Origin: a virus | Reading direction: 5' to 3' (one strand) | IMG/VR virus record: IMGVR_UViG_3300045988_119743 | Length of the DNA: 64,000 nucleotides | Shown here: positions 21,151-25,063 of the stretch, piece by piece | Position numbering within the stretch: position 1 is the stretch's first letter | Layout: the number at the start of each line of letters is the position of its first letter | Translations under genes and position numbers: made by a program | The notes under the pieces: model-generated | What the model saw: the letters and a program-made list of their open reading frames with translations, nothing else | Databases searched by the model: none | What the model was told of the DNA's origin: nothing

Positions 21151-21348
21151 ATGGAAAAGAAGGAATTTAAAGTAGGAGAAGTATTTACTGCCGGACTTGT
21201 AAGATTAAAATGTGTGGAAGGTGATACATGCGATAGGTGTATATTCGAAGATTACGATTCTTGTTCATGTACAGACATAATTATTGGTCCATGTGGACAT
21301 GTTGATAGACGAGATAACAAGAATGTTATTTTTATTAAAGCTGATTAA
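21151..21348 (+). CDS. hypothetical small Cys-rich protein
   Basis: 65 aa with CxxC...C...C. Confidence 0.3.
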   Translation: MEKKEFKVGEVFTAGLVRLKCVEGDTCDRCIFEDYDSCSCTDIIIGPCGHVDRRDNKNVIFIKAD

Positions 21349-21350
21349 GA

Positions 21351-22064
21351 ATGTACATCAATTTCAGACAACTTGCAGCATCAGACATGACTCCTAATGA
21401 TCTTGCCAATCTTCTTGCCATAAGACAGAAGGATTCGGTTATGATCGAAGCTATGCCGGAAGAAGATGCTGGGAGGTATATAGAGCTTGGCCTGGTTGAG
21501 AAATTAAAATCAGGCGTGATGAGATTGACCAACAAGGGAACGTCTTTTGTGAATTATATAGAGACACCGGAAATGACAGACGAGGTTCTGGAAACGTTGA
21601 AGATTATGATAGGAATGTACGAATCATATTCAAAAGACATAGGTGTCAGCAGAAAAGAAGCAGAATCCAGATTGTGTTGGTTTATGGGTAACACCTCATT
21701 CAAGAAAGAGGTCATACTTCAGGTAACGGAATCTTATATAGCAGAGTCAGGAGATTATACAATGAGCTTATGTAACTTCATATGGAAACCGCCTTCTCAA
21801 GCTTTTTCAGTTCATATGAACCTTAAAAATTCAAAGCTCTTTGAATTAATAGCTGAAAAATTTAAGATCGCTACCGAGCCTTATTTGGAGTCTAAGAAGA
21901 ATAAGGAAATGGATTGGTTGTTTGCCGTATCTAAATTGCCTACGCCTCCGGCTAAAGGCAATCCGGATTATTTGTTTACCGGAAGTTCTGAAACAGACAA
22001 AGAGCGATTGAAAAACATAAAAACGTATTTATTTAACAAAATTAGAAAGCAATGGAAAAAGTAA
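21351..22064 (+). CDS. hypothetical protein, first gene of the ACP/NfeD/flotillin cluster
   Basis: 237 aa; overlaps the ACP gene start by 13 nt, so they are probably co-transcribed. Confidence 0.5.
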   Translation: MYINFRQLAASDMTPNDLANLLAIRQKDSVMIEAMPEEDAGRYIELGLVEKLKSGVMRLTNKGTSFVNYIETPEMTDEVLETLKIMIGMYESYSKDIGVSRKEAESRLCWFMGNTSFKKEVILQVTESYIAESGDYTMSLCNFIWKPPSQAFSVHMNLKNSKLFELIAEKFKIATEPYLESKKNKEMDWLFAVSKLPTPPAKGNPDYLFTGSSETDKERLKNIKTYLFNKIRKQWKK

Positions 22065-22303
22065 GAATCAGAAAGATAATAGAGGATATAATTATTACTC
22101 AGTTTCTTAATTCGGAAATAGATATAATTCATGAAGAAGATGTGACGTTTAAAGAACTTGGATTAGATTCTGTTGATCAAATTGAACTGGAAGTGATGGT
22201 GGAACAAAAATTCAATATTGTTATTATTGATTATGATATGGAGACCATCAAAGATATGACTGATCTTGTTTACAAAATAATAACAGAAGGGTATGGGAAG
22301 TGA
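22052..22303 (+). CDS. acyl carrier protein-like (phosphopantetheine attachment site)
   Basis: 83 aa; LGLDSVDQIELEVMVEQKFNIVI matches the ACP L-G-x-D-S-L-D...E-L consensus around the phosphopantetheinylated Ser; acidic overall. Confidence 0.65.
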   Translation: MEKVRIRKIIEDIIITQFLNSEIDIIHEEDVTFKELGLDSVDQIELEVMVEQKFNIVIIDYDMETIKDMTDLVYKIITEGYGK

Positions 22304-22787
22304 CATAATTTTATGCATGGCTTTAATAGCGTCATTTGCTTTTGTTATACAGTTTTTGTTGTCGATATTAGGATCTGATCTGGATACGGATATTGACATT
22401 GACAGTGCTTCTGATTTAAGCATGTCTTTGTCGGATATCATATCATTCAAGGGCATAACACATTTTATTCTTGGATATAGCTGGACTACCTACTTTTCGG
22501 GTTCCCATTTAGTAGGGGTTGTGATAGGGTCGTTTTTCTTTATCGTTTTGTTTTACGTATATAAGTTACTTCTTAAGTTAAAGCAAGAAATGGTGTACGA
22601 ATGTCCGGAAGATTTAAATGGAAGAGAAGTGGAGATAGTGTTTAGATCAGGGAAGAATCATTATATGGTAAATATTTCAAAAAATGGAAGACAGGAGCAA
22701 ATGAGAGTAAGATGCTTGTCTGGAAAAACCTACAAAAACGGTGACAAGGTGAATATAAAATATGAAGAAGGAGAATTAAGTATCTAA
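22293..22787 (+). CDS. NfeD/YqiJ-like membrane protein (short NfeD, C-terminal OB-fold)
   Basis: Three N-terminal hydrophobic helices, then a beta-rich GREVEIVFRSGKNHYMVNISKNGRQEQMRVRCLSGKTYKNGDKVNIKYEEG tail. Its position immediately upstream of a flotillin gene mirrors bacterial yqiJ-yqiK / nfeD-floT operons. Confidence 0.5.
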   Translation: MGSDIILCMALIASFAFVIQFLLSILGSDLDTDIDIDSASDLSMSLSDIISFKGITHFILGYSWTTYFSGSHLVGVVIGSFFFIVLFYVYKLLLKLKQEMVYECPEDLNGREVEIVFRSGKNHYMVNISKNGRQEQMRVRCLSGKTYKNGDKVNIKYEEGELSI

Positions 22788-22818
22788 TTTTTTTATCAAC
22801 AATTAAATTTTAAAAGTT

Positions 22819-24519
22819 ATGACAACAATCATGTACGTGTCAGCTATCTTAGCTGTAGTGATTATTTTGACAATCATCGGAGTCTTATCAAGGTATCGTA
22901 GATGTAAGCCTAATCAGGTCTTGGTCGTTTATGGTAAGACAGGTGGGGAAAAGAAATCGGCGAAATTATATCATGGTGGAGCGGCATTTGTCTTGCCTAT
23001 TATTCAAAGCTATGATGTTTTGTCAATGGAGCCTATGCAAATAGATTGCAAGCTTACCGGTGCTTTATCATCTCAGAATATTAGAGTAGATGTACCTACG
23101 ACCATTACAGTAGCTATCAGTACAAATCCCGAAATCATGCAAAATGCGGCAGAAAGACTTTTGGGGATGGATACCGAATCTACTGAAAATCTTATTACGG
23201 ACATTGTTTACGGTCAGATGCGTTTGATTATTGCTGAAATGACAATCGAAAAACTTAATTCTGACAGGGATGAGTTTTTGGATAAGGCAAGAAAGAACAT
23301 TGACAACGAGCTTAACAAGTTAGGTCTTTACCTCCTGAACATCAACATCAGTGACATCAGAGACGAAGCTGGTTATATTATGAACCTTGGTAAGGAGGCT
23401 GAAAGTAGGGCTCTGAACGAGGCACAGGCTAATATCGAAGAACAGGAGAAGCTGGGTGCTATTAAGATTGCTGTACAGCAGAAGGAGAAAGAAACGGCTG
23501 TGGCTAATACCAAAAAAGAGCAAGAGATTCAAATTGCTTGTACTGAAAAAGAAAAGGAAACGATAGTAGCTGAAACGAAGAAAGAAAAAGAAATAGCCTT
23601 GGCTTTAACCGATAAAGAAAAACAGATCGGCGTAGCTCAAGCAGATAGAGACAGGGCTGCGGTTATCGCAAAAACTTTAACCGACAAGGAATCGGCGATT
23701 GTAAGATCTAAGGCAGAACTTGAAGTAAATAAAGCCGAGGCTGAAAGGATGGAAGAAGTCGGAAAGAATAAGGCTGAAGCTGACAAGGAAGCAGCTATAG
23801 CAATACAAGACTCTGAAGCTCAGATTAAGAAGGCTGAGGCTGAGAAAAATGCGTCTATAGGATACAACAATGCCCAGAAGGAGGTTGCTGTGTCAGTATC
23901 AGAACTACAGATCATCAAAGCTCAATCAGAGAAGAAGGCCGGAGAAGAAAAAGTTAAATCGGAAGCGGCTGTAAAAACAGCAAAAGAGCTTGCCGACAAA
24001 GAAGTGGAAGAAGCTAAGGCTAAGAAAGTTCAGGCTGCGCTTAAGGCTGAAAAGATTGTGCCGGCTGAAACCCAGAAGGAAGAGGCTATATTACAAGCTG
24101 ATGCTGAGGCAGAGAAGATCAAACGCCGGGCTGAGGCAGAGGCAGCAGCACATTTGGCAAAAGCTGAGGCGGAGGCAAAAGCTATTCAGATGAAGCTGGA
24201 GGCAGAAGCCGAAGGTAAGAAAAAGTCGTTGATGGCAGAAGCCGACGGATTTAAGGCTATGGTGGAAGCAGCAGAATCCAATCCTCAGATAGCCATCCAG
24301 TACAAGATGGTTAATCAGTGGAAAGAAATTGCTGGAGAACAGGTTAAGGCGTTCGAGCACATTAACCTCGGAAATATCACGGTATTTGACGGCGGTCAGA
24401 ACAGTACCGGTAATTTCCTTAACAATGTTGTTAAGACCGTTGCTCCGGCATTGGGAGTCATTGATCAGCTTCCGATTGCAGATACTTTAAAGAAGTTAAA
24501 AGGAGATGACAAAAAATAA
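22819..24519 (+). CDS. flotillin-like SPFH/Band-7 protein (YqiK/FloT family)
   Basis: N-terminal TM; an SPFH domain (PNQVLVVYGK...GGAAFVLPIIQ...NIRVDV...NAAERLLGMD...IAEMTIEKLNSDRDEF...GLYLLNINISDIRDEAGYIMNLG); then ~250 aa of EA/K-rich coiled coil with repeated KEKE motifs and the typical C-terminal region. Confidence 0.8.
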   Translation: MTTIMYVSAILAVVIILTIIGVLSRYRRCKPNQVLVVYGKTGGEKKSAKLYHGGAAFVLPIIQSYDVLSMEPMQIDCKLTGALSSQNIRVDVPTTITVAISTNPEIMQNAAERLLGMDTESTENLITDIVYGQMRLIIAEMTIEKLNSDRDEFLDKARKNIDNELNKLGLYLLNINISDIRDEAGYIMNLGKEAESRALNEAQANIEEQEKLGAIKIAVQQKEKETAVANTKKEQEIQIACTEKEKETIVAETKKEKEIALALTDKEKQIGVAQADRDRAAVIAKTLTDKESAIVRSKAELEVNKAEAERMEEVGKNKAEADKEAAIAIQDSEAQIKKAEAEKNASIGYNNAQKEVAVSVSELQIIKAQSEKKAGEEKVKSEAAVKTAKELADKEVEEAKAKKVQAALKAEKIVPAETQKEEAILQADAEAEKIKRRAEAEAAAHLAKAEAEAKAIQMKLEAEAEGKKKSLMAEADGFKAMVEAAESNPQIAIQYKMVNQWKEIAGEQVKAFEHINLGNITVFDGGQNSTGNFLNNVVKTVAPALGVIDQLPIADTLKKLKGDDKK

Positions 24520-24619
24520 ATACAATGGCCCAAGGTTACACTTGGGCCTAATTGAAGAAGCAAAAGCAGCATTTATAGATTTCATGCCAGCAGGAATAGT
24601 GATTTTTAGTGCTTTATTG

Positions 24620-24660
24620 ATTAATATATTTTTAATATGTATTAATATATTTTTAATATG
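24620..24660. repeat. tandem direct repeat, 2 x 20 nt (ATTAATATATTTTTAATATG) separated by a single T
   Basis: Exact copies at 24620-24639 and 24641-24660, in the intergenic gap after the flotillin gene. Confidence 0.6.
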
Positions 24661-24703
24661 GATTTTGGACAAGATTTAGAACCAGAAGAACTGACCGGAC
24701 ATT

Positions 24704-25063
24704 ATGATCAGTGTTATGGAATTGATTTTGAAACAGAAGAAGAGGAGGATGAAGAATATGACGGATGAGGAATTTGTATTGGATAATAAGAAAAAGGTTG
24801 TTGTAAGAAAAAGAATATCTTATTTAAACAAAGGGGATAAAGTGTGGATCGTGTCTTCCGACGGGTATCTGCTACACACGGACGTGGTTAGAGCCGAACG
24901 CGGACGGTCTTATGTGGATATAGACGGTATCCTGTATTGGAAACGAGGATTGGATGGCAAGCATCGTAATCGTAATAACTACATGCAGTTCGCCATGACG
25001 CCGGAGGACGGTAAGAAGTATGTCGTATATTACCCGGAAGGATTTAAAGACAATGACTTATGA
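24704..25063 (+). CDS. hypothetical protein
   Basis: 119 aa; the probable true start is the ATG at ~24758 (MTDEEF). Confidence 0.4.
   Translation: MISVMELILKQKKRRMKNMTDEEFVLDNKKKVVVRKRISYLNKGDKVWIVSSDGYLLHTDVVRAERGRSYVDIDGILYWKRGLDGKHRNRNNYMQFAMTPEDGKKYVVYYPEGFKDNDL

Follow-up and report, generated by a model that had tools for sequence, protein, structure and literature searches.

A flotillin and NfeD-type gene pair of probable Bacteroidales origin in the replication module of a human gut phage

Gene content and phage context

We analysed a 64,000-nucleotide stretch of viral DNA (IMG/VR record IMGVR_UViG_3300045988_119743), here denoted the window, and focused on a locus that encodes a flotillin and a short NfeD-like protein. 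Upstream of this gene pair are a gene encoding a small acyl carrier protein (ACP)-like protein and a gene encoding a protein of 237 amino acids (Table 1). A first-pass annotation, made from the letters of the window, had described four co-directional open reading frames (ORFs) at this place and had proposed that they form one undescribed phage system. The four ORFs are present, and so are the overlaps noted there, of 13 nucleotides between the 237-aa and ACP genes and of 11 nucleotides between the ACP and NfeD-like genes; a gap of 31 nucleotides precedes the flotillin gene. Concerning the anatomy and the evolutionary history taken jointly, we are highly confident that the region comprises two unrelated units lying side by side in the phage replication module, and that one of them is a host-derived gene pair under selection. 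This unit is a membrane-scaffold operon of the NfeD-like and flotillin genes, spanning 22293-24519 and perhaps reaching 24679; the other unit consists of the 237-aa winged-helix gene and the small ACP-like gene.

The window is 97.6% identical to GenBank OR575929.1, phage csAssE-Sib, a 151-kb member of the Caudoviricetes from the human gut. Structural proteins in that record bear names of the crAss type, such as ring and muzzle proteins. The phage flotillin was found on at least 164 IMG/VR contigs, the best 80 of which carry copies 96-100% identical to it, and the window phage is common in the human gut. The genes around the locus encode a DnaB-like helicase, a primase/helicase, a PD-(D/E)XK exonuclease and a superfamily 2 (SF2) helicase, confirming that the locus lies inside a replication module. 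In OR575929.1 the ACP, NfeD-like and flotillin genes are already labelled 'acyl carrier protein', 'transmembrane protein' and 'flotillin family protein'.

Table 1. Features of the locus in the window. The last column gives the pooled ratio of nonsynonymous to synonymous variation (pN/pS) of the window against 79-80 IMG/VR genomes; the comparisons share ancestry, and the values are relative measures only. TM, transmembrane helix.
Feature	Coordinates	Strand	Description	pN/pS
Upstream 200-aa gene				0.003
237-aa ORF	21351-22064	+	Winged-helix (MarR-like) DNA-binding protein; C-terminal helical domain without assigned function	0.051
ACP-like carrier protein, 83 aa	22052-22303	+	Ser40 in LGLDSV; beside the flotillin cassette, not a member of it	0.375
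Short NfeD-like partner, 164 aa	22293-22787	+	TM1, acidic D-x-D-x-D-x-D loop, TM2, TM3, OB-type beta domain (~112-163)	0.047
Flotillin, 566 aa	22819-24519	+	N-terminal hydrophobic anchor, SPFH/Band_7 (30-211), E/A/K-rich helical region, Flot (450-559)	0.035
Small ORF, 57 aa	24506-24679	+	One hydrophobic helix; overlaps the 3' end of the flotillin gene
Exonuclease gene				0.054
Winged-helix-to-exonuclease interval	22064-25060		Variable among relatives

The flotillin, its NfeD-type partner and their relatives

The flotillin call, which had been based on a transmembrane helix, an SPFH domain and a long coiled coil, was borne out by profile searches. Pfam Band_7 (PF01145, E 7.6e-26, 91.7 bits against a cut-off of 23.6) and Pfam Flot (PF15975, E 2.1e-9, 38 bits against 27) both matched above their cut-offs, and the best PDB sequence matches are the cryo-EM chains of human flotillin-2 and flotillin-1 (E 7e-23 to 8e-19). 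Judged from the sequence by eye, the N-terminal membrane anchor occupies residues ~4-24 (IMYVSAILAVVIILTIIGVLS) and is followed by RYRR. The 566-aa protein is a member of the flotillin family, not a FloT equivalog, and by analogy with its relatives it is predicted to assemble into large membrane-attached oligomers. Among the flotillin homologues of this phage population (P0098-P0202), full-length forms measure about 555-595 amino acids, a variation that fits in-frame insertions and deletions in the E/A/K-rich helical region.

The identity of the 164-aa protein was not given by sequence models. No match was obtained in Pfam, NCBIfam, PHROGs (E<=1) or PADLOC, and neither the Pfam NfeD model PF01957 nor any model of the YqiJ family was hit. 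In an AlphaFold prediction made with a small alignment (mean predicted local distance difference test score, pLDDT, 72.6), hydrophobic helices lie at residues 2-25, 52-69 and 72-101, and a five-stranded OB-type beta barrel, modelled at pLDDT 81-88, lies at the C-terminus. The best PDB matches of this barrel are NfeD domains, and it superposes on YuaF and on other NfeD domains. A profile search of 1.84 billion representative proteins gathered a family of 415 proteins, mostly of 160-180 amino acids. PF01957 was matched by 2 of 67 members (best E 6e-5), the family profile found the soluble domain of YuaF (2k14) weakly though in the right region (E 0.74), and a viral homologue in BFVD, 34% identical to the window protein, is named 'NfeD-like C-terminal domain-containing protein'.

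Conserved motifs of the family are Q-F-x-L-S in TM1, S-F-K-G-x-x-H-F in TM2 and, between these helices at residues ~31-37, the acidic D-x-D-x-D-x-D loop; the loop and the S-F-K-G-x-x-H-F motif are near-invariant across the 160-180-aa family. The two motifs suggest a putative metal- or ion-binding site. To our knowledge such an acidic loop is not known from classical NfeD proteins. The NfeD-like gene stands beside a co-oriented SPFH gene in all 80 bacterial loci, all 82 window-phage loci and 52 of 53 loci of a second phage group, all described below. Thus, the NfeD assignment of the first-pass annotation stands on the modelled OB domain, the transmembrane helices and the SPFH neighbour, and fails on the Pfam model: the 164-aa protein is a divergent short NfeD-type partner whose fold and gene context agree with the definition of the family, whereas its match to the sequence model does not. 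By analogy with characterised pairs it is predicted to bind the flotillin.

In the known systems yuaF-floT of B. subtilis (NfeD2-FloT) and yqiJ-yqiK and ybbJ-qmcA of E. coli, a small membrane protein with an OB domain is likewise encoded just upstream of an anchored, coiled-coil SPFH scaffold. Operon coupling of SPFH and NfeD genes, cage-like assemblies of QmcA-YbbJ and of flotillins, and a stress function of FloA-NfeD have been described (PMC13086221). The window proteins are distant from the B. subtilis ones: the similarity of the NfeD-like protein to YuaF is marginal, as the profile score above indicates, and the flotillin misses the NCBIfam equivalog cut-off of FloT (144 versus 700 bits).

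To find bacterial relatives of the pair, we scanned one genome per species with a 12-sequence subset of the 67-sequence alignment of the 164-aa family. The scan yielded 80 loci in Bacteroides, Phocaeicola, Parabacteroides, Prevotella and Paludibacteraceae, with a few mis-binned contigs. In every one of them a flotillin gene lies 32-327 nucleotides after the NfeD-like gene, and in none was a homologue of the ACP or of the 237-aa protein found nearby. Over full-length alignments the window flotillin is 39-76% identical to the flotillins of these loci (median 65%), and the NfeD-like protein is 32-41% identical to their partners (median 37%). The chromosomal flanks vary with the genus, which marks the pair as a self-contained operon of two genes in bacteria. 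The similarity in gene order between the phage pair and bacterial operons, pointed out in the first-pass annotation, reflects homology and not mere likeness. The Bacteroidales operon, exemplified by B. finegoldii JCM 13345 (L119, 4001-6166), has the same genes, order, short gap and domain layout as the phage pair, and its proteins, of 163-177 and 541-566 amino acids, are of the same lengths. The phage pair differs in sequence (flotillin 64-70%, partner 37-47% identical), in lying in a replication module as opposed to varying chromosomal contexts, and in having an extra small transmembrane ORF at its 3' end.

Among Bacteroides, Parabacteroides and Prevotella hosts, flotillins share 87-99% identity with each other. 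The phage copy shares 64-70% identity with every one of them and branches separately within the Bacteroidales. The pair was most probably captured from a Bacteroidales host, long ago: its identity of 65% and 37% to the host copies, together with its own branch, argues that the capture was not recent. A recent and unconserved capture of host DNA, raised at the outset as a ground for doubting a dedicated phage function, is accordingly not what we found, as the pair is so distant from hosts and is kept across saturated synonymous divergence. An IMG/VR scan with a Bacteroides flotillin recovered, besides the window phage, one host-like contig with a 96%-identical gene. GenBank MT836799.1 (L086, 'Bacteriophage sp.', unverified) was considered as a third phage with the pair and rejected; the N-terminal 39 residues of its NfeD-like protein are identical to the B. 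finegoldii chromosomal copy, and the record is probably Bacteroides host DNA.

Two loci of the bacterial scan (L155 and L160) lie on contigs of 153 kb and 140 kb that were binned as Clostridium and Gastranaerophilales. These contigs look like phage genomes: their genes are packed as in phages, and among their PHROG hits is an HNH endonuclease (E 3.7e-51). They belong to a second phage group, whose 657-aa flotillin recovered 53 IMG/VR loci (L337-L389), many of them on contigs of 165-193 kb. Flotillins of the group are 58-100% identical to each other and 38-41% identical to the window flotillin; the NfeD-like partner, 28-42% identical to that of the window, is encoded directly upstream in 52 of the 53 loci. 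Within 6 kb of these 53 loci no ACP, 237-aa or exonuclease homologue was detected. The second group is a separate, long-maintained and independently present phage copy of the same two-gene module.

Flotillin-like matches are otherwise sparse in phages. Only 11 of 50,697 GenBank phage records have one, and several of the 11 are unverified short fragments. The 'flotillin family protein' of Vibrio phage KIT04 and the SPFH lipoproteins of PHROG 200 are likewise phage-borne SPFH proteins without an assigned role. The protein of KIT04, a T5-like phage, differs from the window flotillin in its length of 473 amino acids and in being 29% identical over half the length (L175, 3680-5350), and it is preceded by an 82-aa ORF as compared with the 164-aa NfeD-like gene of the window; the match of the window flotillin to PHROG 200 is weak (E 6.8e-5). 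Why a phage genome should carry an SPFH gene has been called unclear (PMC13239085). Our literature search found no paper joining flotillin with crAss-like phages, and a search for csAssE gave nothing relevant.

To learn about the constraint on the locus we compared pN/pS among its genes (Table 1). The values of 0.051, 0.047 and 0.035 indicate that the 237-aa, NfeD-like and flotillin genes are real genes and not chance ORFs. The contrast between the ACP gene and the genes adjacent to it is large, and strong purifying selection acts on the flotillin-NfeD pair. All 82 phage loci have an intact NfeD-like gene, and 77 of them also have an intact flotillin gene; of the other five flotillin genes, three carry stop codons, and two (L082 and L083) were flagged because the alignment ends four residues before the C-terminus, with no stop. 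Between the window and the diverged phage L082, synonymous sites are saturated (pS 0.73-0.92), while the nonsynonymous divergence (dN) amounts to 0.12 for the flotillin, 0.27 for the NfeD-like protein, 0.16 for the 237-aa protein and 0.58 for the ACP; all four genes are kept together in L082.

These data bear on whether the pair is a neutral passenger, that is, captured host DNA without benefit to the phage. Its host origin and its place in a slot whose genes differ among related phages would suit a passenger. We nevertheless consider this extremely unlikely, as the pN/pS of the pair is as low as that of the neighbouring replication genes, both genes are intact in nearly all phage loci, and the pair has persisted over the saturated divergence just described while only 65% and 37% identical to host copies. 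Together, the results indicate that the flotillin-NfeD pair, an operon of a known kind captured from a host, is real, predicted to be functional and unusual for phages.

The carrier protein, the winged-helix gene and the cargo slot

The small protein encoded upstream of the pair resembles acyl carrier proteins, as the first-pass annotation had concluded. It matched Pfam PP-binding (PF00550, 27 bits against a cut-off of 20.8) and PHROG 5934 'acyl carrier protein' (E 1.7e-8), all of its 65 PDB hits are ACPs, and it contains the phosphopantetheine motif LGLDS(40)VDQIELE, with the serine at position 40 of LGLDSVDQIELE. This serine is kept in 80 of 80 phage genomes, and the motif makes the protein a putative target of phosphopantetheinylation. 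With phage ACPs (PHROG 5934, annotated as moron/auxiliary metabolic gene) it shares the family match, the PP-binding domain, the DS(V/L) motif and PDB hits to type II ACPs. It differs in missing all NCBIfam ACP cut-offs, those of housekeeping AcpP-type equivalogs among them (17-30 bits against 66-146), in showing relaxed selection and natural knock-outs, and in its genomic company: in the ~143 of 151 kb of the csAssE-Sib annotation that we read, no phosphopantetheinyl transferase (PPTase), acyl-ACP synthetase, fatty acid or polyketide synthase or lipid enzyme is annotated.

Among related genomes the ACP-like protein is 87-98% identical, as compared with 97-100% for its neighbours. About 7 of 80 genomes carry a broken copy of the gene: two have a stop at codon 22, one at codon 43 and two at codon 52, one has a frameshift and one gave a truncated match. 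In all of these loci (L002, L013, L016, L039, L040, L046 and L047) the neighbouring genes are intact. In a sister clade, the ACP orthologue of L090 carries an aspartate in place of the phosphopantetheine serine (LGFDDLD). The ACP-like gene looks to be under relaxed or changing selection, and it is optional cargo, neither needed for the flotillin pair nor specifically linked to it.

Searches of Pfam, NCBIfam, PHROGs and PADLOC with hidden Markov models gave nothing useful for the 237-aa protein, which has a winged-helix fold of the MarR-like type. Its homologues, 35-98% identical and all of about 235 amino acids, occur on many contigs of related phages, up to about 157 kb in length. In every relative examined the gene lies between the genes on the DnaB side and the PD-(D/E)XK exonuclease gene, whatever cargo intervenes. 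We conclude that the 237-aa gene belongs to the replication module, as a conserved replication or regulatory gene, and not to the flotillin cassette.

Across relatives, the interval between the winged-helix and exonuclease genes can lack genes altogether or hold up to about 3-3.3 kb of them, and the genes differ. It is empty in L257 and L258, holds one 101-aa ORF in L256 and two small ORFs in L092 and L094, and contains the ACP, NfeD-like and flotillin genes with small ORFs in the window and in L082. L090 and L091 carry the ACP gene followed by a DNA methylase gene, two small ORFs and two radical-SAM genes. The diversity of the slot was drawn from look-ups of individual 237-aa homologues; an IMG/VR scan with distant homologues returned almost solely the same phage species. 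This interval is a cargo hot spot of the phage family. The ACP is cargo common to two clades, and the flotillin pair is a separate cargo, present in one of those clades only. The cargo of L090 (6675-9946) and L091, which opens with the aspartate-bearing ACP orthologue, may form a cassette for the modification of DNA or nucleotides that includes a carrier-like protein. TnpB/IS605-type elements occur at differing sites of the replication module in L091 (1592-2812), L092 (1-687), L094 (10792-11937) and L256 (7044-8628), and signatures of inteins or homing endonucleases are present in helicase genes of L091, L092 and L093.

The first-pass annotation had placed the flotillin pair, the ACP and the 237-aa gene in a single system, in which an acyl carrier is coupled to microdomain scaffolding. 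The four genes are co-directional and overlapping or closely spaced, no terminator-like site separates them, all four remain together in L082, and Ser40 of the ACP is kept throughout; these features would be expected of an integrated system. The genes nevertheless occur separately. The ACP is found without flotillin in L090 and L091, where its serine is replaced, and the pair is found without ACP in all 80 host loci and, in the second phage group, at 52 of 53 loci. The ACP gene evolves at a pN/pS of 0.375 and is disrupted in genomes whose pair is intact, the winged-helix protein is conserved regardless of cargo and even beside an empty slot, and none of the enzymes that might serve a carrier protein is annotated in the part of csAssE-Sib that was read. 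An integrated four-gene system is thus very improbable. Synteny among relatives, which had been proposed as a check, holds for the pair, kept in L082 and in nearly all second-group loci, and does not hold for the ACP and 237-aa genes, which are separable from it. That genes in the cargo slot of a phage overlap and run in one direction is not enough to make them a functional system.

Proposed role of the pair and neighbouring small ORFs

We consider it likely that the pair is a host-derived auxiliary membrane-scaffold cassette. A phage ancestor most probably took the pair from a Bacteroidales chromosome, and it landed in the slot between the winged-helix and PD-(D/E)XK exonuclease genes. Judging from the SPFH-NfeD complexes QmcA-YbbJ, FloA-NfeD and FloT-YuaF, the pair would be transcribed with the replication genes. 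The flotillin would be anchored in the cytoplasmic membrane by its N-terminal helix and would oligomerise through its SPFH and coiled-coil regions into cage-like assemblies, and the OB domain of the NfeD-like protein would bind these assemblies and promote or stabilise them. The phage may thereby gain its own supply of a scaffold that organises the membrane and buffers membrane stress, such that the host inner membrane would stay fluid and energised, and its protein complexes functional, during phage replication. For this specific membrane-supporting role, which is drawn from analogy with bacterial relatives, our confidence and our doubt are evenly balanced.

Several points weigh against this reading. 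The benefit of the pair to the phage is one that we infer, and the likely hosts already encode a pair of their own, so that an extra supply is not obviously needed. The flotillin scores 144.5 bits against the NCBIfam FloT equivalog NF058507, short of its cut-off of 700. The lack of terminator-like sites on the + strand between 19000 and 26500, in itself a point in favour, comes from a scan not designed for the signals of Bacteroidales or phages; a sigma-70 promoter scan, likewise not designed for Bacteroidales or phage promoters, was uninformative. Finally, a CAG-to-TAG change lies inside the flotillin gene in 3 of 80 genomes (L048, codon 405; L077 and L078, codon 490), which would truncate the C-terminal domain; the C-terminal part may be dispensable in some strains, or these variants may be assembly errors. 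Recoding of the TAG codons was considered as an explanation and rejected. The four-gene tRNA cluster of csAssE-Sib contains no suppressor tRNA (two other annotated tRNAs were not re-checked), and the stops in the ACP gene are TAA or TGA. More likely, the TAG codons are ordinary nonsense mutations or assembly errors.

That the hosts already have the pair also bears on a different role, hijacking or interference. The phage proteins would co-assemble with the host flotillin complexes or displace them, re-targeting or poisoning membrane microdomains; a block of superinfection, the blunting of abortive-infection effectors that act on the membrane, and a membrane platform for phage replication or assembly are examples. 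In the presence of the host pair a plain duplicate seems redundant, and the phage copies diverge from the host ones (64-70% and 37-47%) far beyond the divergence among hosts (87-99%), which fits a changed function. Because of this strong divergence, and because hosts already have the pair, the interference version gains some weight. The retention of the pair in two separate groups of large phages and its gene position, which suggests co-expression with replication genes, point in the same direction. Against it, the pair retains all family-defining domains and evolves under strong purifying selection, as would equally be expected had its function not changed. None of the four locus proteins matches a PADLOC defence model, which says little, as this library covers bacterial defence and lacks phage counter-defence. 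On balance we regard interference as unlikely.

In its broadest form the proposal, which we put forward tentatively and think doubtful, is that large gut phages, both the ~150-kb lineage of the window and the group of about 165-193 kb, keep a diverged flotillin-NfeD cage to take over the membrane organisation of the host. This might proceed by mixing into host flotillin assemblies and re-targeting them, by shielding the membrane against abortive-infection effectors that disrupt it, by superinfection exclusion or by providing a platform for replication and assembly. Such a takeover, if true, would be a class of phage-host interaction undescribed for SPFH proteins.

The pair might instead modulate a membrane protease of the host, as HflK/C and the B. 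subtilis flotillins do with FtsH, and so protect phage proteins or alter host protein turnover. The precedent is at the level of the family, in which SPFH proteins act as regulators or scaffolds of FtsH and the long forms of NfeD contain a protease (background cited in PMC13086221). The architecture at the locus, a flotillin with a short NfeD-type protein, is compatible with such control; at the same time, the 164-aa protein has no protease domain of its own, nothing at the locus points to FtsH, and the SPFH protein is of the flotillin type, not of the HflK/C type. Protease control is therefore quite improbable, and the auxiliary membrane-scaffold cassette is the explanation that we prefer.

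Flotillin-NfeD operons are widespread in bacteria and their physiological role is debated. The maintenance of the pair under strong purifying selection in two groups of gut phages amounts to a natural experiment for a presumed benefit during infection of Bacteroidales, and the phage pair, as a compact system of two genes, lends itself to tests of flotillin cage function. The 164-aa family, largely missed by current hidden Markov model libraries, emerges as the usual flotillin partner in Bacteroidales.

Two small ORFs lie at the borders of the locus. For the 57-aa ORF that overlaps the 3' end of the flotillin gene, no counterpart was found 3' of flotillin genes in bacteria; the diverged phage L082 has a 52-aa ORF at the same place, whose C-terminal half is hydrophobic. 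The 57-aa ORF may be an accessory of the flotillin cassette, an assignment that we regard as uncertain. At the other end, just 5' of the 237-aa gene, a Cys-rich ORF of 65 amino acids (21151-21348) is poorly conserved: only 47 of 80 related genomes have a match that covers 90% or more of it, and its pN/pS is 0.88.

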